Positions 943-58,393 of a DNA stretch of 64,000 nt are shown here, one piece after another. Position 1 is the first letter of the stretch, and each line of letters starts with the position of its first letter. The position numbers and the translations under genes are program-made. Source of the DNA: Escherichia virus TH15; sequence record MT446392.1; one strand, given 5' to 3'. Under the pieces are notes generated by a model. It worked only from the letters and a program-made list of their open reading frames with translations, was not told where the DNA came from and made no database searches.

Positions 943-1016
943 GGCCCTGTAGCTGGACGGTCAAGCGAGCGACTCATAATCGCTGGATGGTGGTTCGATT
1001 CCACCCAGGGCCACCA
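943..1016 (+). tRNA. tRNA, anticodon CAT (Met or lysidine-type Ile)
   Basis: Cloverleaf: acceptor GGCCCTG/CAGGGCC, anticodon stem AGCGA/TCGCT loop CTCATAA, T-arm GGTGG-TTCGATT-CCACC, encoded CCA. Confidence 0.85.
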
Positions 1017-1150: not shown

Positions 1151-1226
1151 CGAGGCATAGCTCAGAAGGAAGAGCAAGGACCTTCTAAGTCCTAGGTCGT
1201 AGGTTCGATTCCTACTGTCTCGACCA
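1151..1226 (+). tRNA. tRNA-Arg, anticodon TCT
   Basis: Acceptor CGAGGCA/TGTCTCG, D-arm AGCTCAG, anticodon stem AGGAC/GTCCT loop CTTCTAA, T-arm GTAGG-TTCGATT-CCTAC, CCA. Confidence 0.85.
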
Positions 1227-12638: not shown

Positions 12639-13184
12639 ATGAGAACTTTTTTAACTGGACCTTATCTATCCCTGATGAATGCTTTTACCCACCATTCTGA
12701 TGCTCGAATAGAAGAACTTTGTAAGACCGATTGTTATATTCCTCCAATGGAAGTCTTGCTCAAAGAATACTGCACACTCCGTATGGATGGCGGGCGACAA
12801 TCAGGTAAATCTACTGCAGTAACTAATTTTGCTGCTAACTGGATTTATGACGGAGGTACAGTAATTGTCCTGTCTAATACCTCGGCTTATGCAAGAATTT
12901 CATCCGATTCTATCAAAAATGATTTTATTCGTTTTAGCGCGGAAGATATTCGTTACCGGCTTTTCCATGATTCATTACGTAGCTTTATCGGTAATAAAGG
13001 TTCTAAATTCCGTGGCCTTGCGCTTTCACGCGTATTGTATATAATTGATGAACCTATTAAAGCTCCTGATATGGACAAGATTTACGATATCCATATGAAA
13101 ACTGTACAACACTGCTGCCATGCTCATTGTTTTAAAACGGGTGAAACAGTTCGTCCTCAATTTTTTGTGATTGGAATGCAATGA
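12639..13184 (+). CDS. small P-loop NTPase
   Basis: Walker A GGRQSGKST and Walker B VLYIIDEP. Confidence 0.65.
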   Translation: MRTFLTGPYLSLMNAFTHHSDARIEELCKTDCYIPPMEVLLKEYCTLRMDGGRQSGKSTAVTNFAANWIYDGGTVIVLSNTSAYARISSDSIKNDFIRFSAEDIRYRLFHDSLRSFIGNKGSKFRGLALSRVLYIIDEPIKAPDMDKIYDIHMKTVQHCCHAHCFKTGETVRPQFFVIGMQ

Positions 13185-13537
13185 TGAATACTATCGAAGT
13201 TTTTGAATATTGTTATAGCAGCTCCGCTTGTAATAAAAAGGCCCTCGTAGAAAACTATGAGATATTCCATTTTAAACCTAAACGGTATCGTTTGACTAAA
13301 GGTCCATTCAAGGGACAACAGGTTCTCTGTACCGCACCAAATGAACGTCTGATGAATATCATTCCATATTTCAAAATGGAATTCATTGGCAGACGTTATA
13401 AAGGGCTAATCACTCAAAGCCTGATGGCTTATGGCTCTGATCCGATTTTGATGGAACAAACCGAATTTAAAAAGTTTTATACAGGTTCAGCCGTTTTAGC
13501 TGAACCTAAAGGCTTTACGGTGGCCCATCATGGCTAA
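13181..13537 (+). CDS. hypothetical protein
   Basis: 118-aa ORF, ATGA overlap. Confidence 0.55.
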   Translation: MMNTIEVFEYCYSSSACNKKALVENYEIFHFKPKRYRLTKGPFKGQQVLCTAPNERLMNIIPYFKMEFIGRRYKGLITQSLMAYGSDPILMEQTEFKKFYTGSAVLAEPKGFTVAHHG

Positions 13538-13748
13538 ATTGATTATCGAAGGTTCTGATGAAGCCTTGAAAAGATTCGTTGAATGGTTTAATGGCCCGGG
13601 CGAACAAGACTTTCTGGAAGTCTGGGACGGTGGTCAATGGAATGGTAAAGAAATGGTTTACCCAACTACCTATATCTCCGTGCAAGGGTGGACTGACAGA
13701 CTTCGTTTGGTAGAATATGATATCGCAACTGGCGAGGAAGTGAAATGA
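13530..13748 (+). CDS. hypothetical protein
   Basis: 72-aa ORF, overlapping start. Confidence 0.5.
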   Translation: MAKLIIEGSDEALKRFVEWFNGPGEQDFLEVWDGGQWNGKEMVYPTTYISVQGWTDRLRLVEYDIATGEEVK

Positions 13749-14008
13749 TTGAAGATATCAAAGGTTACAAGCCACATACCGACGATAAAATCGGTAAAGT
13801 GAACGCTATTAAAGATGCAGAAGTTCGTCTTGGATTGATGTTTGATGCTCTGATTGAAGAAGCATATATCTTGAAAGAAAATGAAACAGAGCAACAAACC
13901 AAAGAAGATATGGATGCAGTGCAGGCTCTTAAGTATGCTAAGCAACATCTAAAAGAAGCCAGCATGTGGGCATGTCGTGCAGTATTTCGACCCGAGGAAA
14001 AATACTAA
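13745..14008 (+). CDS. hypothetical protein
   Basis: 87-aa ORF, ATGA overlap. Confidence 0.5.
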
Positions 14009-14313
14009 TGGCGCAGATTAATTCTGGTTTTGGTTATGAGTTATCAACCGCTTCTCATCGCCGCATAAATGATTCCAATCCGTTTGGATTCACATCGAAA
14101 CAGCCAAAAATTCAAAGTCTAGACGATTTCCAGGAAGTTATTCGTAAGGCCTTTCAGGACTACGGGAACTATCTTAAAGAAGATTCAAACGACTGTCTTG
14201 AAGAAGATGAAATTGCTTACTACGAGCAACGCCTTGAACAGCTTAAGAATTTGCACGCTGTTCGTGCCGAAGTCTCACAATCATTAAATAAGCTAATTCG
14301 TTTTAAAGAATAG
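14008..14313 (+). CDS. hypothetical protein
   Basis: ATG 14008 after GAGGAAAAA SD. Confidence 0.5.
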
Positions 14314-14342
14314 TGTACAAGCAGGTTGAAATGAGTTATGAT
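14314..14342 (+). promoter_or_regulatory. T4-type early promoter
   Basis: -35 GTGTACA, 16-nt spacer, -10 TATGAT. Confidence 0.5.
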
Positions 14343-14369
14343 TATCCCATCAAACAAAAGGAGATAATC

Positions 14370-14828
14370 ATGACTACTATCGATTCAAGTGTTTACATTC
14401 GCCGCAATAAACTTCGTCGTATTTTTGAAACGGAGTTCCTCAAAATTAATAATGCTATCAACAAGGCTTGTAAAGAAGCAGGCCTTGAAGCATTCTTCAT
14501 TAAGTACAGTCCACACCTGTTGGACCGTGCAATCCAACGTGAAATTGACGAACAATATGTTTTTGACTTGTTTGGAAAAATCACACCACATGTAAAAGAA
14601 ATTGTTGAATTCCTGGAGATGAAACCACTCCCGGAAGTTGAAGCACAAATTGACCCGAATGTGAACTACCGTCCACTTCGTCTGGAAATCACAGACAAGA
14701 ACCTATGGTTAGGAATGACAGTTAACCCAGCTCTTCCTGGGAAGTCTCCAACCATGTGTTGTCGTATGGCGTTTGTTAACTCTAATCGTCTGGAAGGAAA
14801 AATTAGCACAAAAGTGATTTATATCTAA
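14370..14828 (+). CDS. regB: RegB endoribonuclease
   Basis: MTTIDSSVYIRRNKLRRIFETEF...HLLDRAIQREIDE matches T4 RegB; ATG 14370 after AAGGAG. Confidence 0.85.
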   Translation: MTTIDSSVYIRRNKLRRIFETEFLKINNAINKACKEAGLEAFFIKYSPHLLDRAIQREIDEQYVFDLFGKITPHVKEIVEFLEMKPLPEVEAQIDPNVNYRPLRLEITDKNLWLGMTVNPALPGKSPTMCCRMAFVNSNRLEGKISTKVIYI

Positions 14829-14838
14829 TGGGGAATTC

Positions 14839-15381
14839 ATGAAAAAAGTAATAGCCACTTTACTATTGACAGTTAGTATGTCTGCCCATAGCGTAGAGCC
14901 TACTTTCAGTAATGAACAGATGGAAAATCTTCAATATGCGTATGCATTTGGAGAACAGTTCCAGAAAAATGGTAAGTACAAAGAAAATCCGCACCAACAT
15001 AATGGTTTGGGATATATCATGGCTGGATTAACCTGGCAGGAAAGTTCTGCCGGGGTTAATACAGGATTAAATAAAGATAAGCATCATGCATATGGTATAT
15101 TCCAAAATTATCTTCCAACCGTGCGCGAGCGCGTAAAACAGGTTGGGTGGACAATGACAGATAAAGAAATAATCAAGATGATAAGCAAGAGAGAGAACAG
15201 TGCACGCTGGGCTTATATTGAGCTTTCATACTGGTTGAACATTCACAAGGGGGACATAAGAAAAACACTATCATCATATAACGCAGGGTGGAATGTGAAA
15301 GCTGGAAATACGTATGCTTCACAGGTCCTAGAAAAAGCTAACTACTTAAAATCACGAGGCCTATTAAAAACGGTGGATTAA
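14839..15381 (+). CDS. periplasmic lytic transglycosylase (SLT-like) with signal peptide
   Basis: Signal peptide MKKVIATLLLTVSMSAHS; motifs WQESSAG, AYGIFQ, SYNAGWN. Confidence 0.65.
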   Translation: MKKVIATLLLTVSMSAHSVEPTFSNEQMENLQYAYAFGEQFQKNGKYKENPHQHNGLGYIMAGLTWQESSAGVNTGLNKDKHHAYGIFQNYLPTVRERVKQVGWTMTDKEIIKMISKRENSARWAYIELSYWLNIHKGDIRKTLSSYNAGWNVKAGNTYASQVLEKANYLKSRGLLKTVD

Positions 15382-15741
15382 ATGGTAAGAGTCATAACTT
15401 TAGCCATAGGGTTAGTATTCAGCACGGGAGGAATAGCTTCAGTACAGAGCGATGATAATAATAGCATCATAGAATATGCAACGAGGACGGCCAAAGATTA
15501 TTGTGCATCAAGCAATGTGGATTGTGTAATCCAGTTTAGTGCCAAACTCACTGCTGCATATAAAGACGGTCAAAATGATGTTGAACACACTCTTATGAAA
15601 AAGAGTATTTTATCCAACAAATATGAAAAGAAACTATTTGAAATGGATTGTATTCTGTCGAGTGCCAAATATAAAGCGGCCTGCACCAGTATGGTTGACA
15701 GGTTAGTCGATTCCTATAACAGAGGATTGAACTCTAAATGA
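15382..15741 (+). CDS. hypothetical secreted protein
   Basis: 119 aa; hydrophobic signal-like N-terminus; several Cys. Confidence 0.55.
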   Translation: MVRVITLAIGLVFSTGGIASVQSDDNNSIIEYATRTAKDYCASSNVDCVIQFSAKLTAAYKDGQNDVEHTLMKKSILSNKYEKKLFEMDCILSSAKYKAACTSMVDRLVDSYNRGLNSK

Positions 15742-16202
15742 TTGTTAACTATATTAAGGGCGATATTGTCGCCCTTTTTCTCGAAGGAAACATCATAGCT
15801 CATGGCTGTAATTGTTTCCATACAATGGGTTCAGGCGTTGCTGGCCAACTGGCAAAGGCTTACCCAAAAATTTTAGAAATGGATAAGACATCAACTGAAT
15901 ACGGTTCCCGAGAAAAACTCGGTGATATGTCTATCGTTTTTAAACATAAACCAACTGGATTTGGTATGTGCTATAACCTTTATACCCAGTATGAACCGGG
16001 TCCAAATCTGGATTATGGTGCTTTAGTAAATTGCATGATAGAATTAAATCGACAAGCAGAATCCCTTTTGTTCAAGCCTGTGATTTATATTCCCAGGATT
16101 GGATGTGGTATTGCAGGTGGTGATTGGGATAAGGTTTCCCGGTTAATTGATATGTTTACTCCTGACATTGATTTGATAGTGGTGGATTATGAGTCAAACT
16201 AG
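15738..16202 (+). CDS. macro-domain-like protein (putative ADP-ribose binding/hydrolase)
   Basis: GDIV...GNIIAHGCN...GSGVAGQL and IPRIGCGIAGG resemble macro-domain motifs. Confidence 0.55.
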   Translation: MIVNYIKGDIVALFLEGNIIAHGCNCFHTMGSGVAGQLAKAYPKILEMDKTSTEYGSREKLGDMSIVFKHKPTGFGMCYNLYTQYEPGPNLDYGALVNCMIELNRQAESLLFKPVIYIPRIGCGIAGGDWDKVSRLIDMFTPDIDLIVVDYESN

Positions 16203-16395
16203 TATTCTTAAAAATGCTCACTGTGAAAAGTGTAAATGGCCAGTTGTTTTTGCTTTATGCAACGATGAAATGATATGTGATTTTGATTATTGGTGCTATT
16301 GTTCTAATAAAGGGTGTGTGAATCATGCAGGCGCCGGTTTCTATTCCGGGTTTCAACCGTATCCAGACTTTGTAAAACAAGGTGAACCGAAATGA
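16189..16395 (+). CDS. hypothetical Cys-rich small protein
   Basis: 68 aa with 9 Cys. Confidence 0.5.
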   Translation: MSQTSILKNAHCEKCKWPVVFALCNDEMICDFDYWCYCSNKGCVNHAGAGFYSGFQPYPDFVKQGEPK

Positions 16396-16577
16396 GTTTA
16401 AGTATTAGTCAGAAAAGTAGATTGTTTGAGCTTATCCATGAGCTTTTGGACGAGCATACGGAAGCGAACGCTTTTTATGATGAATACGGCCCGATAGATG
16501 CCGAACATCAGGAAGAATTTGCTAATCGGTTTGATGAGAAAGAAAACGAATTAATTGCTTATGTGAATACTCTTTAA
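16392..16577 (+). CDS. hypothetical protein
   Basis: 61-aa acidic ORF. Confidence 0.5.
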   Translation: MSLSISQKSRLFELIHELLDEHTEANAFYDEYGPIDAEHQEEFANRFDEKENELIAYVNTL

Positions 16578-16586
16578 GAAGGTGAT

Positions 16587-17159
16587 ATGGCGAGTTTAAT
16601 TTATCATTACGCAGCAATGAATGCAGGCAAAACAGCTTCATTGCTGACTGCAGCTTATTCCTATAAAGAGCGTGGAATGAGTGTGCTTTTGCTAAAACCT
16701 GTTATTGATAATCGGGACTCGGAATCTGAAATTAAATCACGTATTGGTATTAGCCAGGAAGCAAACCTGGTAACGGCCGACATGAACCTGTTTGAATTCT
16801 ATAAATGGGCCGAGTCTCAAAAGGATATCCATTGTGTCCTGGTTGATGAAGCTCAATTTTTGTTACCAGAGCAAATTGACCAGTTAGCACGAGTGGTTGA
16901 TAATTACAATATCCCCGTTATGTGTTACGGGTTAAGAACAGATTTTCGGGGTCAATTATTTCCCGGTTCAGCCAGACTTCTGGCTATTTCGGATAAACTG
17001 GTTGAATTAAAGGGCGTCTGCCATTGCGGCCGGAAAGCAACCATGACCGCTCGAGTAATCGACGGTGCTGCTGTAAAGGACGGCGAGCAAGTGTTAGTCG
17101 GTGGGAATGAATCGTACGTATCTTTATGCAGGAAACATTGGCTCGAATTGACAAGCTGA
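16587..17159 (+). CDS. tk: thymidine kinase
   Basis: P-loop NAGKTASLL, VDEAQF, C-terminal CHCGRKAT zinc ribbon. Confidence 0.95.
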   Translation: MASLIYHYAAMNAGKTASLLTAAYSYKERGMSVLLLKPVIDNRDSESEIKSRIGISQEANLVTADMNLFEFYKWAESQKDIHCVLVDEAQFLLPEQIDQLARVVDNYNIPVMCYGLRTDFRGQLFPGSARLLAISDKLVELKGVCHCGRKATMTARVIDGAAVKDGEQVLVGGNESYVSLCRKHWLELTS

Positions 17160-17166
17160 GGTCCTT

Positions 17167-17442
17167 ATGATATATAAGATTTGGACGTATATCTCTATTT
17201 TTGTTATTGCTGGAATTGCATTTATCCCCACACAAACAGATAGCGAGAGATATGAAAGGGAAATTGAAATAGTAGCAAGCACGTACCATTCTGTTAATAA
17301 AGAATGCCCGAATAAAAATGGAATAAATTTACAAAAAGCACATTATATGCTGACTGTTACTAGCCCAGTGCAAAGAATATGGGTTGATAGACATTTTTCT
17401 GATTTATTTGCAATATATTGTTTCAAGTTTAAAAGATTATAA
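17167..17442 (+). CDS. hypothetical membrane-anchored protein
   Basis: 91 aa, N-terminal TM helix. Confidence 0.5.
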   Translation: MIYKIWTYISIFVIAGIAFIPTQTDSERYEREIEIVASTYHSVNKECPNKNGINLQKAHYMLTVTSPVQRIWVDRHFSDLFAIYCFKFKRL

Positions 17443-17445
17443 ATA
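17438..17445 (+). promoter_or_regulatory. T4-type late promoter TATAAATA
   Basis: Exact TATAAATA upstream of rI. Confidence 0.4.
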
Positions 17446-17516
17446 CAGTTACTAACTAGTATTCCGCTATGTTAAGGCTGCAAAGCGTAATCATGACCAA
17501 CAATAAGGAGTCCTTT

Positions 17517-17813
17517 ATGGACCTTATTCGAGGACTTTCTCTAAGTCTATTACTAATGGGCTGTTTAGGCCCAAATCTGTCCTCTGCTACAGATGGTAAA
17601 TTTACCCAGTATGCAGATAGTGCGATGCAAATCTATTCGCAATTCAAAGAACCCAGCGTCGAGCAGTCCGAACAATTTTGGGCTTTTATTAAAACCGAAT
17701 GGAACAATAAGAGTCAATGTGTAAATGAAATCACATGTCAAATTGATGGCCGGGCTGCTGCAGTCGAATACGCTAAATTAATGAAGGTAAAATTGGAAGA
17801 TGAAATTCGATGA
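17517..17813 (+). CDS. rI: lysis inhibition regulator rI
   Basis: Signal-anchor then EQSEQFWAF...AAAVEYAKLMKVKLEDE resembles T4 rI; position next to tk. Confidence 0.75.
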   Translation: MDLIRGLSLSLLLMGCLGPNLSSATDGKFTQYADSAMQIYSQFKEPSVEQSEQFWAFIKTEWNNKSQCVNEITCQIDGRAAAVEYAKLMKVKLEDEIR

Positions 17814-50368: not shown

Positions 50369-50662
50369 ATGAAAAAGTTATTAATCGCGGCAATTCTTAC
50401 CGTAGCATCATGTGGTACAGCTCCTGTAACCGCTGGACTTGATAAAGACCTTTGTGAGTGGTCTATGACTGCTGACCAGACTGATGTTGAACATCAGATT
50501 TATGCTGATATCATGAATATTACTAAACGTGACCGCCCAGATATGGTTAAAGAAGTATCTGACCAACTGGCTTCTGGCGACGTTATGCAGTATAACTATG
50601 TTCTGTATTGCGATGCTTCATTTGACAACAGCAAGATTGTTCAATGGGTTACAGGTGAATAA
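50369..50662 (+). CDS. putative lipoprotein
   Basis: Signal peptide with lipobox TVASC. Confidence 0.55.
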   Translation: MKKLLIAAILTVASCGTAPVTAGLDKDLCEWSMTADQTDVEHQIYADIMNITKRDRPDMVKEVSDQLASGDVMQYNYVLYCDASFDNSKIVQWVTGE

Positions 50663-50663
50663 A

Positions 50664-51104
50664 ATGATTAACAGAAATTTAGTTATCAAAAAACTTCGTT
50701 GTAAAAATCAAAATGCACAGGCATACAGGATGTTTTGGAGCGACGACCCCATCCAATACCTGGGTTATTTTCTTGTTGATAGTGATAATAGAATTACGTT
50801 TGCTCATAAACTTCTTAACAAAGAATTAAACCATTGGCAAGAACTTATTGCGGTCAAGTCTAAATTATTTTCGCGCAATACAATGCACCAATTGGTTTAT
50901 TTTTTCGCTGATGGTATTCCTGACAAGGTTGAATTTGATGGGTTTGAATTTAAAGACATCAACCCTGATAATGAATTGAATGACAGTATTGTTAATATGG
51001 GTATCCCGGGTAAGTACATCAAAAACAGTCTTTTGAAACTTCTGGAAACTCCTGTATATTCAGTTGACGACCAAATTTTTAATGCCTTCATGAAGCGAGA
51101 TTAA
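50664..51104 (+). CDS. hypothetical protein, C-terminal DDQIFNAFMKRD tail
   Basis: ATG 50664 after GGTGAATAAA; track ATG 50529 overlaps upstream gene. Confidence 0.55.
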   Translation: MINRNLVIKKLRCKNQNAQAYRMFWSDDPIQYLGYFLVDSDNRITFAHKLLNKELNHWQELIAVKSKLFSRNTMHQLVYFFADGIPDKVEFDGFEFKDINPDNELNDSIVNMGIPGKYIKNSLLKLLETPVYSVDDQIFNAFMKRD

Positions 51105-51105
51105 T

Positions 51106-51465
51106 ATGAGTTATTATAATTTTCTGAATTTTGAACTGGTGAGCAATAATGATGGTAATGCCCGTTATGAATTTCGTGAGCCTCGGTTTAATCAGGCGAT
51201 TGGTTATATTATCGTTAAAGATGATGTTATCATAAAGGCTCGCTCATTTATGGTAATGAGTGGACCTTATGAAGATACTCGTGGCTATCCATTTGATAAA
51301 AAGAATGTACGCGATTGTGCAGCATGGATAACCGGAAACCCTGAAATTGGGGTCATGATATCTACTGAAGCAAATGACATTCTGGAAGGGGCTTGGGTTA
51401 AAGCTCAAGAACTGCCTACTGATATTGATGACCAGATTTTTAATGCCTTCATGAAGCGAGGTTAA
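51106..51465 (+). CDS. hypothetical protein, C-terminal DDQIFNAFMKRG tail
   Basis: 119 aa; last 12 codons repeat those of previous gene. Confidence 0.55.
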   Translation: MSYYNFLNFELVSNNDGNARYEFREPRFNQAIGYIIVKDDVIIKARSFMVMSGPYEDTRGYPFDKKNVRDCAAWITGNPEIGVMISTEANDILEGAWVKAQELPTDIDDQIFNAFMKRG

Positions 51466-56291: not shown

Positions 56292-56852
56292 ATGAACATC
56301 ATCAAATCTGATACCGAACCCAACCAGTTAAAATTTAGTGAAATGGAGATAGCTTCATTGTTTGAATGTCGCACATCAAAGGTTGACAAAACCTTGCATT
56401 CAAACGTCAACTCAATCATCAAGTCAAGGTTATCTGTACCTGATACAGTCTTGTATCGCGGGGTTACCCAGCAAGAGATTGATTTGTTAGATGAAGCAAA
56501 AGAATCAATGCAACCTTTTGAATTTGGAAGAATAACTTCCTTTACAGAAGACTACGGTATTGCCAGGGATTTTGCTGCAATGGAATATGTGACAAGGACT
56601 ATCGTCAGATTGAATCAGACCAAAGCTTTTTGTTACCATGATGCGATGCGCAAAATCGCGCTTGATGTTCCACTGGAATTCTTCAATACTGCTTCTGGTT
56701 CCAAACAGGCAGCTACATTAAGGCGTGAAGAATACATGGACATGATTGATTCTGAGCTTGAATGGTTTGTTCCAGTTGACCAGAAATACGTGATAGTTGA
56801 TGCTGGATTTGTTGGTGATTATTATGTTCTTGACTGTGTACAAGAACAATAA
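56292..56852 (+). CDS. ADP-ribosyltransferase-like protein (ModB position)
   Basis: R-S-E-type motifs: LYRGV, TSFTED, SELEW; T4 synteny soc-mrh-modB-modA-srd. Confidence 0.6.
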   Translation: MNIIKSDTEPNQLKFSEMEIASLFECRTSKVDKTLHSNVNSIIKSRLSVPDTVLYRGVTQQEIDLLDEAKESMQPFEFGRITSFTEDYGIARDFAAMEYVTRTIVRLNQTKAFCYHDAMRKIALDVPLEFFNTASGSKQAATLRREEYMDMIDSELEWFVPVDQKYVIVDAGFVGDYYVLDCVQEQ

Positions 56853-56865
56853 GACACGTTAAGAT
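56836..56865 (+). promoter_or_regulatory. possible early promoter
   Basis: -35 GTGTACA inside upstream coding end, weak -10 TAAGAT. Confidence 0.35.
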
Positions 56866-56896
56866 GTTCCTATCAACTACTGATGAGGATAATAAA

Positions 56897-57511
56897 ATGC
56901 TGTACACTGATGACGTTTTGAATGGAATTATTGACACTGCCGCTTCTAGTGAGTCTTTTCGTGACCAATGTCAAGCAGAGATTGATGCTCTTTATACAGA
57001 TAATGAGCAATCAGTACTCTGGCAGTGTATGGAAAATAAACCCGACCTGATTCAAGAAGACTTAACCAGGATTATCCGCAACAATCTGACTAAAGAAATT
57101 CCTACAAAATTGTATCGTGGGATTTCGCAGAAAACCATGGAATACCTGGAATCAGAAGGGTGTGTTGGCGGGATTATCAACTTTGACAGAGTGATGAGTT
57201 TTTCCAGGGACTGGCAGGTTGCAAGAAATTTCGCATCATATAGCTTCTATGGTACAAGGAATATTTTCTGCATAAACAATGCACCTTATGCGTATAACTA
57301 TCAGGAAGCAATCTTTAAAATGATTTGCGGCGCTCCTCCTGAAGAGTTCAATGGTGCATATCCAGAAGCAACCAGGAAGTCAAACTTACACCTGGTTAAT
57401 GATGAGGATGAGTTTATGTTTCCCGCTGGGACTACGCTTCGCGTAGATTTAATTGAGACACACCCATTGAATAACCTGTATACTGTTTGGCATTTAACTG
57501 TTTTGAACTAA
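56897..57511 (+). CDS. ADP-ribosyltransferase-like protein (ModA position)
   Basis: LYRGI, MSFSRD, EDEF motifs; ATG 56897 after TGATGAGGATAATAAA. Confidence 0.6.
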   Translation: MLYTDDVLNGIIDTAASSESFRDQCQAEIDALYTDNEQSVLWQCMENKPDLIQEDLTRIIRNNLTKEIPTKLYRGISQKTMEYLESEGCVGGIINFDRVMSFSRDWQVARNFASYSFYGTRNIFCINNAPYAYNYQEAIFKMICGAPPEEFNGAYPEATRKSNLHLVNDEDEFMFPAGTTLRVDLIETHPLNNLYTVWHLTVLN

Positions 57512-57646: not shown

Positions 57647-58393
57647 ATGACTTTATCAAAAACCAAAACGCTGAAAGTTAAACGTCGTCTGGAACACACT
57701 CAAGCTTCTGCTAAACGTCGCGGTAAGGACTTTAACCTGGATTTCAATTACCTGGTTAACATTCTTGACCAAAAAGTTTGTGCTTATTCTGGTGAAGCAT
57801 TTAATAACTCTATTGAAGGTGAGAAGTTATCATTAGAGCGTTTTAACAATGATATTGGTTATATCAAAGGTAATGTTATTCCTGTTAAAAAGAAATACAA
57901 TACCATGCGTTCTGATTGGTCCCTGGGTGAGCTTAAACAACGTCGTGATGATGTTGCTGTAAAAATTGCTCGCCCATCTGCCAAGAAGATTGAAAAGTTA
58001 AATCTGACTTCAGAGAAATGGGAACAGATTAAAAAGTCATACAACCATATAAAGAACATCCAGCACAAACGTGAGAATCGCGTTAAGCATTATGCCCAAA
58101 TGAGTAAATCAGAGCAGTCAAAAGAAAACCAATTAAAAATGGTTGCTCTGAAGGCTCGCATTGATGGTTCCCGTATTGCGGAAGGTCATGAGCTTACTAA
58201 ATTGAACGTCTTACTCAAAGGTAATGACTGGAAAGTTACCAAGAAATTAACTGATGCTGAAACGCTTTTTGATTGCTATGATAAAATCATTCAAGGTCTT
58301 GAGCGTTTTGAGAAGATTGGTTTTATTGGTAAATTAAAACTGAAACGTGGTCTACCTTTGAACGCGTCAATTTTTAAACTGATTAGAGGTTAA
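57647..58393 (+). CDS. hypothetical basic protein (srd-position)
   Basis: 248 aa between ART genes and dda, where T4 srd lies; not sequence-verified. Confidence 0.5.
   Translation: MTLSKTKTLKVKRRLEHTQASAKRRGKDFNLDFNYLVNILDQKVCAYSGEAFNNSIEGEKLSLERFNNDIGYIKGNVIPVKKKYNTMRSDWSLGELKQRRDDVAVKIARPSAKKIEKLNLTSEKWEQIKKSYNHIKNIQHKRENRVKHYAQMSKSEQSKENQLKMVALKARIDGSRIAEGHELTKLNVLLKGNDWKVTKKLTDAETLFDCYDKIIQGLERFEKIGFIGKLKLKRGLPLNASIFKLIRG

Follow-up and report, generated by a model that had tools for sequence, protein, structure and literature searches.

The Tk.4 (AdfM) ortholog of Escherichia virus TH15, a TARG1-like macrodomain with a glutamine-type active site and a probable anti-DarTG2 role

The window analyzed here, a 64,000-nucleotide stretch of Escherichia virus TH15 (MT446392.1), contains an ORF at 15738..16202 whose product a first-pass annotation, made from the sequence alone, had described as macro-domain-like. 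The locus raises the question of whether the product is a macrodomain, of what kind, and what it does for the phage. The ORF begins with ATG at 15738, ends with a stop codon at 16200-16202 and specifies 154 aa; the motifs quoted in the annotation are all present, namely GDIV (residues 8-11), NIIAHGCN (18-25), GSGVAGQLAKAYP (31-43) and IPRIGCGIAGGD (118-129). The gene and its immediate neighbors are the following:

15382..15741, plus strand: vs (valyl-tRNA synthetase modifier), upstream of adfM; PHROG_1256 at E 1.3e-32 and synteny with T4, T6 and VR20
15738..16202, plus strand: tk.4/adfM ortholog, a stand-alone macrodomain of 154 aa, TARG1-like in class and Gln-type in its active site
16189..16395, plus strand: tk.3-like phage zinc-binding protein, downstream of adfM; PF23895 at E 1.3e-28

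The stop codon of vs overlaps the start of adfM (ATGA), suggesting that these two genes are co-transcribed and translationally coupled, and the start of the tk.3-like gene overlaps the 3′-end of adfM by 14 nt. The genes of the run regB-vs.1-vs-tk.4-tk.3-tk share one strand, and their stop and start codons overlap; the order regB-vs.1-vs-tk.4-tk.3-...-tk matches that in T4, T6 and VR20, and the window is that of a T4-like (Gaprivervirus-like) phage. Scanning positions 13000-17600 for sigma-70 promoters and terminators gave 17 sites where 13.9 are expected, which is uninformative. The MotA-box scan returned no candidate immediately upstream of the adfM ORF and one candidate inside it, and the Rfam and tRNA scans nothing bearing on adfM. 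A candidate promoter internal to the ORF lies at 16019..16044.

The similarity of the ORF product to macro domains far exceeds chance. It matches Pfam Macro (PF01661) at E 1.4e-8 and 35.1 bits over profile positions 2-117 of 118, above the gathering score of 22 bits, and PHROG_335 at E 5e-70; by tblastn, 2,782 phage records contain relatives, and there are 788 homologous protein clusters. With the AlphaFold (AF2) model (pLDDT 95.8, pTM 0.90) as query, Foldseek gave 151 PDB matches at E<=1e-3, the best 50 of which are all macrodomain-fold chains, a few being serine hydrolases designed on that scaffold. A Pfam search and a structure prediction with comparison to solved structures had both been proposed in the first-pass annotation, and the two agree on its central claim: the product is a macro domain with, in the model, the three-layer alpha/beta/alpha macro fold. 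The protein has the conserved loops G31-S-G33-V-A35 and G122-C-G124-I-A-G-G128, which as GxG loop and phosphate-binding loop would form the predicted ADP-ribose cleft. By class this is a genuine macro-domain enzyme, for which catalysis is predicted.

The product is 59% identical to T4 Tk.4 (NP_049723) over 152 aa without gaps (E 8e-71), and 15738..16202 is the sole significant match of T4 Tk.4 in the window by tblastn. T4 Tk.4 itself reaches 203 bits against the profile of the Tk.4 family. Similarity and gene order both identify the ORF as a syntenic ortholog of T4 tk.4, also known as adfM (anti-DarT factor macrodomain). The two proteins have in common their length, the vs and tk.3 flanks, and residues H22, N25, Q84, G122 and G124, but differ at 41% of residues and in the phosphate-binding loop, which reads IGCGIAGGDW in the window protein and IGAGIGKGNW in T4 Tk.4, the former being nearer the family consensus.

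The T4 record states that Tk.4 "contains A1pp phosphatase motif," and the PHROG label is "phosphatase." The first-pass annotation knew of no macro domain in T4, a point on which it erred; as the ORF is the ortholog of Tk.4, the implied novelty is gone. The T4 counterpart was annotated as A1pp/macro for decades and was assigned a function in 2025, so that the gene is already known. On a DarTG2 host, tk.4 was the one gene whose insertions were significantly depleted from a T4 transposon library, and the control host, without DarTG2, tolerated them; a clean Δtk.4 knockout is sensitive to DarTG2, and enzymatic removal by T4 Tk.4 "seems likely" according to the 2025 preprint that gave the gene the name adfM (bioRxiv 10.1101/2025.11.20.689424). 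The T-even toolkit against ADP-ribosylating defences comprises AdfA and AdfN, which counter DarTG1, and AdfM, which counters DarTG2.

The comparison with YmdB in the first-pass annotation holds for the general ADP-ribose-binding motif order, which the window protein has in common with YmdB and Af1521 (MacroD-type) as members of the macro superfamily, but not for the class. In the Foldseek search YmdB (5cb3) comes only 47th, and the O-acetyl-ADP-ribose deacetylase model of NCBIfam gives 17.7 bits where its cut-off is 291; a YmdB/MacroD type was rejected for these reasons. The protein belongs to the TARG1/DarG/SCO6735/BT1257/Poa1p (ALC1-like) class, not to the YmdB/MacroD or PARG classes; its top Foldseek matches are TARG1, BT1257, Poa1p and the DarG proteins of Mtb and Taq (TM 0.69-0.81). 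Three segments make up the putative active site:

15801..15815, plus strand: codons H22-G23-C24-N25-C26, with H22 and N25 corresponding to His24 and Asn27 of SCO6735 by alignment
15975..15989, plus strand: codons N80-L81-Y82-T83-Q84, with Q84 at the catalytic-Lys position by HMMER and MAFFT alignments
16092..16127, plus strand: codons P119-RIGCGIAGGD-W130, the phosphate-binding loop by HMMER alignments to 5e3b, 2afc/2fg1 and TARG1

N25 is the conserved Asn of DarG and of PhiKZ AdfM (N23) in the MAFFT alignment, and the N23A change reduces the activity of the latter (PMC13309987). Q84 aligns to the catalytic Lys of TARG1 (K84, by HMMER profile) and to those of DarG (K80) and PhiKZ AdfM (in FPTK, by MAFFT with DarG and gp104); the lysine is thus absent from the window protein, with Gln84 instead. 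TARG1 D125 is likewise replaced, by A126 (HMMER). The loop motif PRIGCG(I/L)AGGxW is common to the window protein, SCO6735 and BT1257 in the HMMER alignment, and G122 and G124 are Gly126 and Gly128 of SCO6735; the direct alignment to SCO6735 (5e3b) covers the phosphate-binding loop only, from a truncated query. The equation of Q84 with SCO6735 Gln85 is a transitive step, with TARG1 K84 as the bridge together with a statement in the paper that also describes the roles of His24 and Asn27 (PMC9411070).

Across the family, H22-G23-C24-N25-C26 is invariant in all 143 members, these residues being part of the search pattern for the bacterial ones; N80, Y82 and Q84, which lie outside the search patterns, are also invariant (143/143). 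The full set Q84, N25, H22, G122 and G124, equivalent to Gln85, Asn27, His24, Gly126 and Gly128 of SCO6735, shows no variation in the 143. Having the Gln, the positioning Asn, the His and the loop glycines, the window protein fits, as far as alignment can tell, the SCO6735 (Gln) type.

SCO6735 of Streptomyces coelicolor (PDB 5e3b) resembles the window protein in its TARG1-like class, catalytic-position Gln, His-x-x-Asn and PRIGCG(L/I)AGGxW loop, and in being encoded by a stand-alone gene unlinked to DarT. The sequence similarity is distant (E 1.4e-7 with a single sequence, 3e-16 with a profile), the DNA-contact residues Lys34 and Lys89 of SCO6735 fall outside the residue mapping onto the window protein, and SCO6735 serves a bacterium as a housekeeping or SOS-type gene, whereas the window gene is probably of the phage counter-defence type. 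SCO6735 cleaves thymidine-linked ADPr-DNA and protects in vivo against DarT, and its Q85A mutant is dead (PMC9411070). Among solved relatives, BT1257 of Bacteroides (PDB 2afc, 2fg1) comes nearest in the profile comparison (E 2e-20), and it has both the Gln and the PRIGCGLAGGKW loop. In structure the nearest match is human TARG1/OARD1 (PDB 4j5r and others; Foldseek E 3e-10, TM 0.74-0.81), but its catalytic dyad K84/D125 is Q84/A126 in the window protein; TARG1 reverses thymine- and uracil-linked ADPr (PMC13036486).

The macrodomain of DarG, the DarTG2 antitoxin (PDB 5m3i, 5m31, 7omu), agrees with the window protein in fold and class (Foldseek E 1.8e-8, TM 0.75), in the conserved Asn and presumably in its substrate. 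It differs in its catalytic Lys80, within an FPTK motif where the window protein has Q84, and in its C-terminal DarT-binding domain and adjoining darT, both of which the window protein lacks. DarG is the best NCBIfam and PADLOC match of the window protein, though below the cut-offs: the NCBIfam model NF048014 gives 30.1 bits against 250, and PADLOC DarG gives 29 bits, compared to 133 for PhiKZ gp104. The latter, the AdfM of a chimallivirus, is like the Tk.4 type a stand-alone phage macrodomain countering DarTG2; in vitro it clears DNA of the marks made by DarT2, and it also rescues cells from the toxicity of DarT2 (PMC13309987). It belongs, however, to a different, DarG-type subfamily, with E 9e-25 to Mtb DarG and the FPTK lysine; it scores 34 bits on the Tk.4-family profile, and its pairwise match to the window protein spans only 33 residues (E 8e-4).

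We consider it probable, by analogy with the T4 ortholog and the characterized relatives, that the window protein is an AdfM which removes DarT2-made ADP-ribose from phage DNA. At 59% identity it would be expected to have the anti-DarTG2 phenotype of T4 Tk.4, and protection is likely to proceed by enzymatic de-ADP-ribosylation of DNA. Among the roles proposed in the first-pass annotation, the reversal of host-defence DNA ADP-ribosylation is the one which the T4 genetics favor (bioRxiv 10.1101/2025.11.20.689424). The product would be made during infection from the regB-vs.1-vs-tk.4-tk.3-tk run, while the host DarT2 toxin of DarTG2 would ADP-ribosylate thymidine in phage single-stranded DNA and so block replication. 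The macrodomain would then bind the ADP-ribose and hydrolyze the ribose-thymine N-glycosidic bond, leaving unmodified DNA. The chemistry is probably that of SCO6735, with Asn25 holding Gln84, Gln84 orienting the distal ribose and water starting the reaction; the Lys-based chemistry of DarG and TARG1 would not be used.

Counting against the proposal are the missing DarG/TARG1 catalytic Lys and TARG1 Asp, scores far under the DarG model cut-offs, an N-terminal half that resembles the Appr-1''-p phosphatase Poa1p about as well as any other protein, and the source of the functional evidence, which is a preprint on a 59%-identical ortholog in another phage.

The alternative that survives best is a broader nucleic-acid repair, in which ADP-ribose would also be taken off uracil in RNA, or off other base adducts made by as yet unidentified defences. 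Of the hydrolases tested, only the TARG1-like enzymes TARG1, DarG and SCO6735, whose activity on thymine-linked ADPr was known beforehand, notably reversed uracil-linked ADPr, and the closest characterized relatives of the window protein, SCO6735 and TARG1, do so efficiently on ssRNA (PMC13036486). Johannesman et al. also raise the speculation that other DNA- or RNA-ADP-ribosylating defences may be detoxified by anti-DarT factors. Even so, we regard this extension as unlikely. T-even phages stay sensitive to CmdTAC, which ADP-ribosylates mRNA, and Tk.4 therefore evidently leaves that adenine adduct in place; a uracil-ADP-ribosylating defence system was not found in the literature searched.

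Protection need not be purely catalytic, because DarG and SCO6735 bind DarT and thereby inhibit it as well (PMC9411070). A mainly non-catalytic effect on DarTG2, with DarT2 bound and inhibited or the ADP-ribosylated sites shielded, nevertheless seems to us improbable. In vitro the dead forms of SCO6735 (Q85A), DarG (K80A) and TARG1 (K84A) all inhibit DarT, SCO6735 most strongly (PMC9411070), and the window protein has a pocket of the SCO6735 type. Yet all of the SCO6735 catalytic residues are invariant among the 143 phage and bacterial members, which suggests selection on catalysis, and the 154-aa protein is without the dedicated C-terminal DarT-binding domain of DarG. The activity of PhiKZ AdfM, moreover, needs its catalytic-site Asn (PMC13309987).

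There is similarly little probability that the main substrates are small ADP-ribose derivatives, with the protein acting as an Appr-1''-phosphate phosphatase (Poa1p-like), an O-acetyl-ADP-ribose deacetylase or a degrader of an ADPr immune signal. The best single-sequence PDB match is indeed yeast Poa1p (E 8.7e-10; PDB 6lfq-6lfu), an Appr-1''-p phosphatase that shares the N-terminal IHSCNC / GGGIA region, H22 corresponding to Poa1p H23 and T29 to S30; and the T4 and PHROG annotations speak of an A1pp phosphatase or phosphatase. The Poa1p residues compared were H23, S30, the F152 region and the phosphate-binding loop PQINSGIFGVPW. This loop differs from that of the window protein, which is of the SCO6735/BT1257 type, and the match lies mostly within residues 3-72, while T29 varies across the Tk.4 family. 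The sole phenotype known for T4 Tk.4 concerns DarTG2 specifically (bioRxiv 10.1101/2025.11.20.689424), and the "phosphatase" annotation derives from a motif, not from an assay; adfM is a reminder that such labels on phage macrodomains are motif-derived.

Both of the ADP-ribosyltransferase-like genes that had been noted at 56292..57511 match PHROG_832, "RNA polymerase ADP-ribosylase" (E 1.8e-28 and 6.3e-39), and are 28-38% identical to T4 ModA/ModB by tblastn; Pfam gave no significant match for these ORFs, which were confirmed by PHROGs and tblastn. The residue that T4 Alt, ModA and ModB modify is arginine, and the enzymes that cleave Arg-ADPr are of the ARH/DraG type, not TARG1-like macrodomains. 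Despite these homologs in the window, the idea, listed first in the annotation as a reversal of phage ADP-ribosylation, that the protein erases or tunes the phage's own Alt, ModA and ModB protein ADP-ribosylation or RNAylation is very hard to credit: the adfM and ModA/ModB loci are 40 kb apart and unlinked, T4 tk.4 insertions are tolerated without DarTG2 and depleted only with it (bioRxiv 10.1101/2025.11.20.689424), the substrates of TARG1-like enzymes are Glu/Asp esters and thymine/uracil adducts (PMC9411070, PMC13036486), and the Tk.4 family is common in bacteria as well as in phages.

Returning to the AdfM reading, its ancestry could in principle have been a captured DarG antitoxin, a candidate that was rejected since no DarT was found beside the best 80 of 495 bacterial loci or in the window. 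With P. aeruginosa DarT2 as a single phmmer query, nothing was found at E<=10 within 5 kb of the best 80 of 495 bacterial loci, and a DarT2-like sequence was not found in the window. At the same best 80 of 495 loci the bacterial relatives are stand-alone genes without DarT, and a Pfam scan of their 132 nearest neighbors gave 185 heterogeneous families and no recurrent partner.

As a discovery the gene adds nothing new, and the mechanistic refinement is its one useful by-product: T4-type AdfM has an SCO6735-type Gln, not a DarG-type Lys, and has bacterial relatives unlinked to DarT. This Gln-type versus DarG-type distinction was not found in the literature searched, where both published descriptions say DarG-like, and the alignments suggest that the name AdfM covers two seemingly independent recruitments, or macrodomain lineages. 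We tentatively surmise, with slightly less than even confidence, that the Tk.4 family was recruited independently from a stand-alone, Gln-type TARG1-like clade (SCO6735/BT1257-like), that anti-DarT2 macrodomains evolved at least twice, and that the substrate range may be wider, for instance including uracil-ADPr on RNA. If so, the Gln type would be that of T4-like and many other myoviruses and the Lys/DarG type that of the chimalliviruses.

The ORF at 15738..16202, an ortholog of T4 tk.4 (renamed adfM), encodes a macrodomain with the following features.

15738..16202, + strand: adfM ORF, intact from ATG to stop, 154 aa
Residues 8-11 of its product: GDIV motif
Residues 18-25: NIIAHGCN motif
Residues 31-43: GSGVAGQLAKAYP motif
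Residues 118-129: IPRIGCGIAGGD motif

The macro domain that the first-pass annotation read from these motifs is confirmed by the Pfam and structure-prediction checks it called for. Almost the entire PF01661 (Macro) profile is spanned at 35.1 bits (E 1.4e-8), far above chance and above the gathering score of 22, and PHROG_335, labelled "phosphatase", matches with E 5e-70. An AlphaFold2 model from 64 homologs has a pLDDT of 95.8 and a pTM of 0.90, and all of its best 50 Foldseek matches in the PDB are macrodomain-fold chains. The comparison with YmdB has to be replaced: among macrodomains the protein falls in the TARG1-like (ALC1-like) class and outside MacroD/YmdB. TARG1 (E 3e-10, TM 0.74-0.81), BT1257, Poa1p and the Mtb and Taq DarG proteins head the Foldseek list, whereas YmdB appears only at rank 47. 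Searched against the PDB, a profile of the Tk.4 family (homologs of T4 Tk.4) finds BT1257 (2e-20), TARG1 (5e-17), SCO6735 (3e-16), Poa1p (6e-15) and DarG (1e-11 and 3e-10).

The source phage is a T4-like myovirus, its nearest relatives being E. coli phages TH40, TH22, UPEC01 and VR20/VR26, with VR20 classified as a Gaprivervirus. The local genes run on a single strand in the order regB, vs.1, vs, adfM ORF, tk.3-like, tk.2-like and tk, and T4, T6 and VR20 have the same order with tk.4 at the adfM position. The vs stop codon overlaps the adfM start codon, and the tk.3-like gene begins within the 3′-end of adfM. T4 Tk.4 is 59% identical over 152 gapless residues (E 8e-71), and a search of the whole window found no second significant match to it; the ORF is the ortholog of T4 tk.4/adfM. 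The gene is not new, and the earlier premise that T4 has no macro domain was wrong, because T4 RefSeq already labels tk.4 "phosphatase; contains A1pp phosphatase motif" and tblastn detects relatives in 2,782 of roughly 50,700 phage records, some as "macro domain protein", "Appr-1-p processing domain protein" or "Poa1p-like family protein"; its function in T4 has also been published. According to a published survey, 41% of myoviruses contain Macro domains (PMC9503650). Three neighbouring genes are as follows.

14839..15381, + strand: Vs.1 homolog (PHROG_600)
16189..16395, + strand: tk.3-like "Phage zinc binding domain" protein (PF23895), a small gene right after adfM
16392..16577, + strand: DUF7438 protein, a small gene after the tk.3-like gene

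The Vs.1 homolog has a signal-peptide-like N-terminus (MKKVIATLLLTVSMSAHS) and gave no Pfam match, and some GenBank records label its homologs as SLT or lytic transglycosylase domain proteins. The DUF7438 protein shows a weak, sub-threshold likeness to the "addiction module component" antitoxin family (PF09720, E 0.006).

In the active site, a HMMER profile alignment places Gln84 (motif N-L-Y-T-Q) opposite the catalytic lysine K84 of TARG1, and Ala126 lies opposite TARG1 D125. MAFFT alignment with DarG, PhiKZ gp104, BT1257 and T4 Tk.4 again puts Gln84 at the catalytic-lysine position, which is K80 in DarG and the FPTK lysine in gp104. Q84, N80 and Y82, all outside the patterns that retrieved the bacterial loci, are invariant in 63/63 phage or metagenome and 80/80 bacterial homologs examined. 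S. coelicolor SCO6735 likewise carries a glutamine here, Gln85, with its rotamer locked by Asn27; Q85A or Q85E abolishes activity, and His24, Gly126 and Gly128 are important (PMC9411070). The enzyme cleaves thymidine-linked ADPr-DNA and shields S. coelicolor from DarT (PMC9411070). H22, N25, Q84, G122 and G124 of the window protein occupy equivalent positions. Direct alignment pairs its phosphate-binding loop, PRIGCGIAGGDW, with PRIGCGLAGGTW of SCO6735 and PRIGCGLAGGKW of BT1257; TARG1 and DarG differ here, with PRIGCGLDRLQW and PPLGxGNGGLxW respectively.

The name AdfM was separately given to PhiKZ gp104, which in vitro strips DarT2-installed ADP-ribose off an oligonucleotide and rescues DarT2-poisoned cells (Cell Reports 2026, PMC13309987). 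The PADLOC DarG model scores gp104 at 133 bits, T4 Tk.4 at 36 and the window protein at 29 (30 with the NCBIfam DarG equivalog, cut-off 250). Mtb DarG matches gp104 with E 9e-25, whereas the Tk.4-family profile gives gp104 34 bits and the window protein matches it over 33 residues (E 8e-4); the two AdfM proteins are therefore of different macrodomain subfamilies. What is modestly new is only the distinction between the two: T4-type AdfM is Gln-type and SCO6735/BT1257-like, while PhiKZ AdfM is Lys-type and DarG-like, which implies that anti-DarT macrodomains may have been recruited twice independently and points to specific mutants worth testing.

In the 2025 HIDEN-SEQ preprint, tk.4 was the single significant hit of a T4 transposon library on a host expressing DarTG2 (toxin DarT2, antitoxin DarG); a clean knockout sensitised T4 to DarTG2, and the gene was renamed adfM, anti-DarT factor macrodomain (bioRxiv 10.1101/2025.11.20.689424). 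Enzymatic removal of ADP-ribose from DNA was there a proposal, not a demonstration. By ADP-ribosylating thymidine in ssDNA, DarT2 stops the phage from replicating (background in PMC11825919). We consider it quite likely that the adfM product strips ADP-ribose from DarT2-modified thymidines of phage ssDNA, in a hydrolysis step that would be SCO6735-like, initiated by water, with Gln84 held in position by Asn25. dT-ADPr hydrolase activity has been shown elsewhere for SCO6735, DarG, TARG1 and PhiKZ gp104, and we infer that the window allele acts like that of T4 and that its protection is catalytic.

A possible wider nucleic-acid role, for instance on U-ADPr in RNA, would be compatible with this dT-ADPr hydrolysis, although CmdTAC, an mRNA ADP-ribosyltransferase, still acts against T-even phages. 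Catalytically dead SCO6735, DarG and TARG1 still inhibit DarT, as the adfM product might if it acted non-catalytically; the invariance of the catalytic residues in the Tk.4 family argues against this. Action on small ADPr derivatives, as an Appr-1''-p phosphatase or similar, draws on the N-terminal likeness to Poa1p and the legacy phosphatase annotation, and on nothing further. The first-pass annotation had offered both reversal of DNA ADP-ribosylation by host defence, which the DarTG2 sensitivity of the T4 knockout favours, and reversal of the phage's own marks, citing two ADP-ribosyltransferase-like genes that are indeed present.

56292..56852 and 56864..57511, + strand: ModA/ModB-like pair, 28-38% identical to T4 ModA/ModB

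Removal of ModA/ModB/Alt marks is nevertheless disfavoured, since these genes are unlinked to adfM, the T4 mutant phenotype is DarTG2-specific, and the marks sit on arginine, a linkage at which TARG1-like enzymes are not known to act. Both copies are slightly nearer T4 ModB than ModA, and the adjacent srd homolog (57647..58393) is far more conserved (69% identity).

Scanning bacteria at one genome per species gave 495 relatives, the best 80 being 32-43% identical. With a single DarT query, phmmer found no DarT2-like ORF in the roughly 5 kb around any of these 80 loci, and no partner recurs among their 132 nearest neighbour ORFs (185 different Pfam families); the Tk.4 family thus appears to comprise stand-alone SCO6735/BT1257-type macrodomains and not DarG antitoxins encoded in operons. 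Upstream of some relatives is rpoC (Ruegeria) or a gene for a class-I aminoacyl-tRNA synthetase (Hyphomicrobiaceae). In six loci of Hyphomicrobiaceae and Jannaschia (L008, L017, L035, L045, L047, L051) the gene immediately follows a long same-strand ORF, a class-I synthetase in the three checked (L008, L035, L051), with an IleRS zinc finger in L051; an equally long upstream ORF in six Ruegeria loci (L013, L014, L016, L036, L037, L053) is rpoC in L013, the one checked. This is curious beside the T4-like phages, where tk.4 directly follows vs (ValRS modifier), and is probably coincidence. Two of the 132 neighbours (loci L003-L082) are NADAR domain proteins and two NAMPT/NAPRTase (NAD salvage), a hint that these macrodomain genes sometimes group with other NAD/ADPr genes.

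Elsewhere in the window, the slot that in T4 holds 61.2 (AdfA, anti-DarTG1 factor) is filled differently.

50369..50662: sp, left flank
50662..51104 and 51106..51465, + strand: two shorter tandem ORFs in place of 61.2, about 146 and 119 aa
52074..53102: primase gene 61, right flank

Full-length AdfA was not found by tblastn; a C-terminal motif, DDQIFNAFMKR[D/G], is all that links the two ORFs to one another and to the C-terminus of T4 61.2 (SIDDQIFNAFMNRG). The 64-kb window has no tRNA genes beyond two, and Rfam at its gathering threshold adds no further RNA family.

943..1016, + strand: tRNA-Met (CAT)
1151..1226, + strand: tRNA-Arg (TCT)

The MotA-box pattern occurs 11 times in the whole window (5.4 expected), 8/11 on the + strand. 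One candidate middle promoter lies within the adfM ORF (16019..16044, + strand; TGCTTTA-N13-TAGAAT) and, judged by its sequence, could drive tk.3 through tk.
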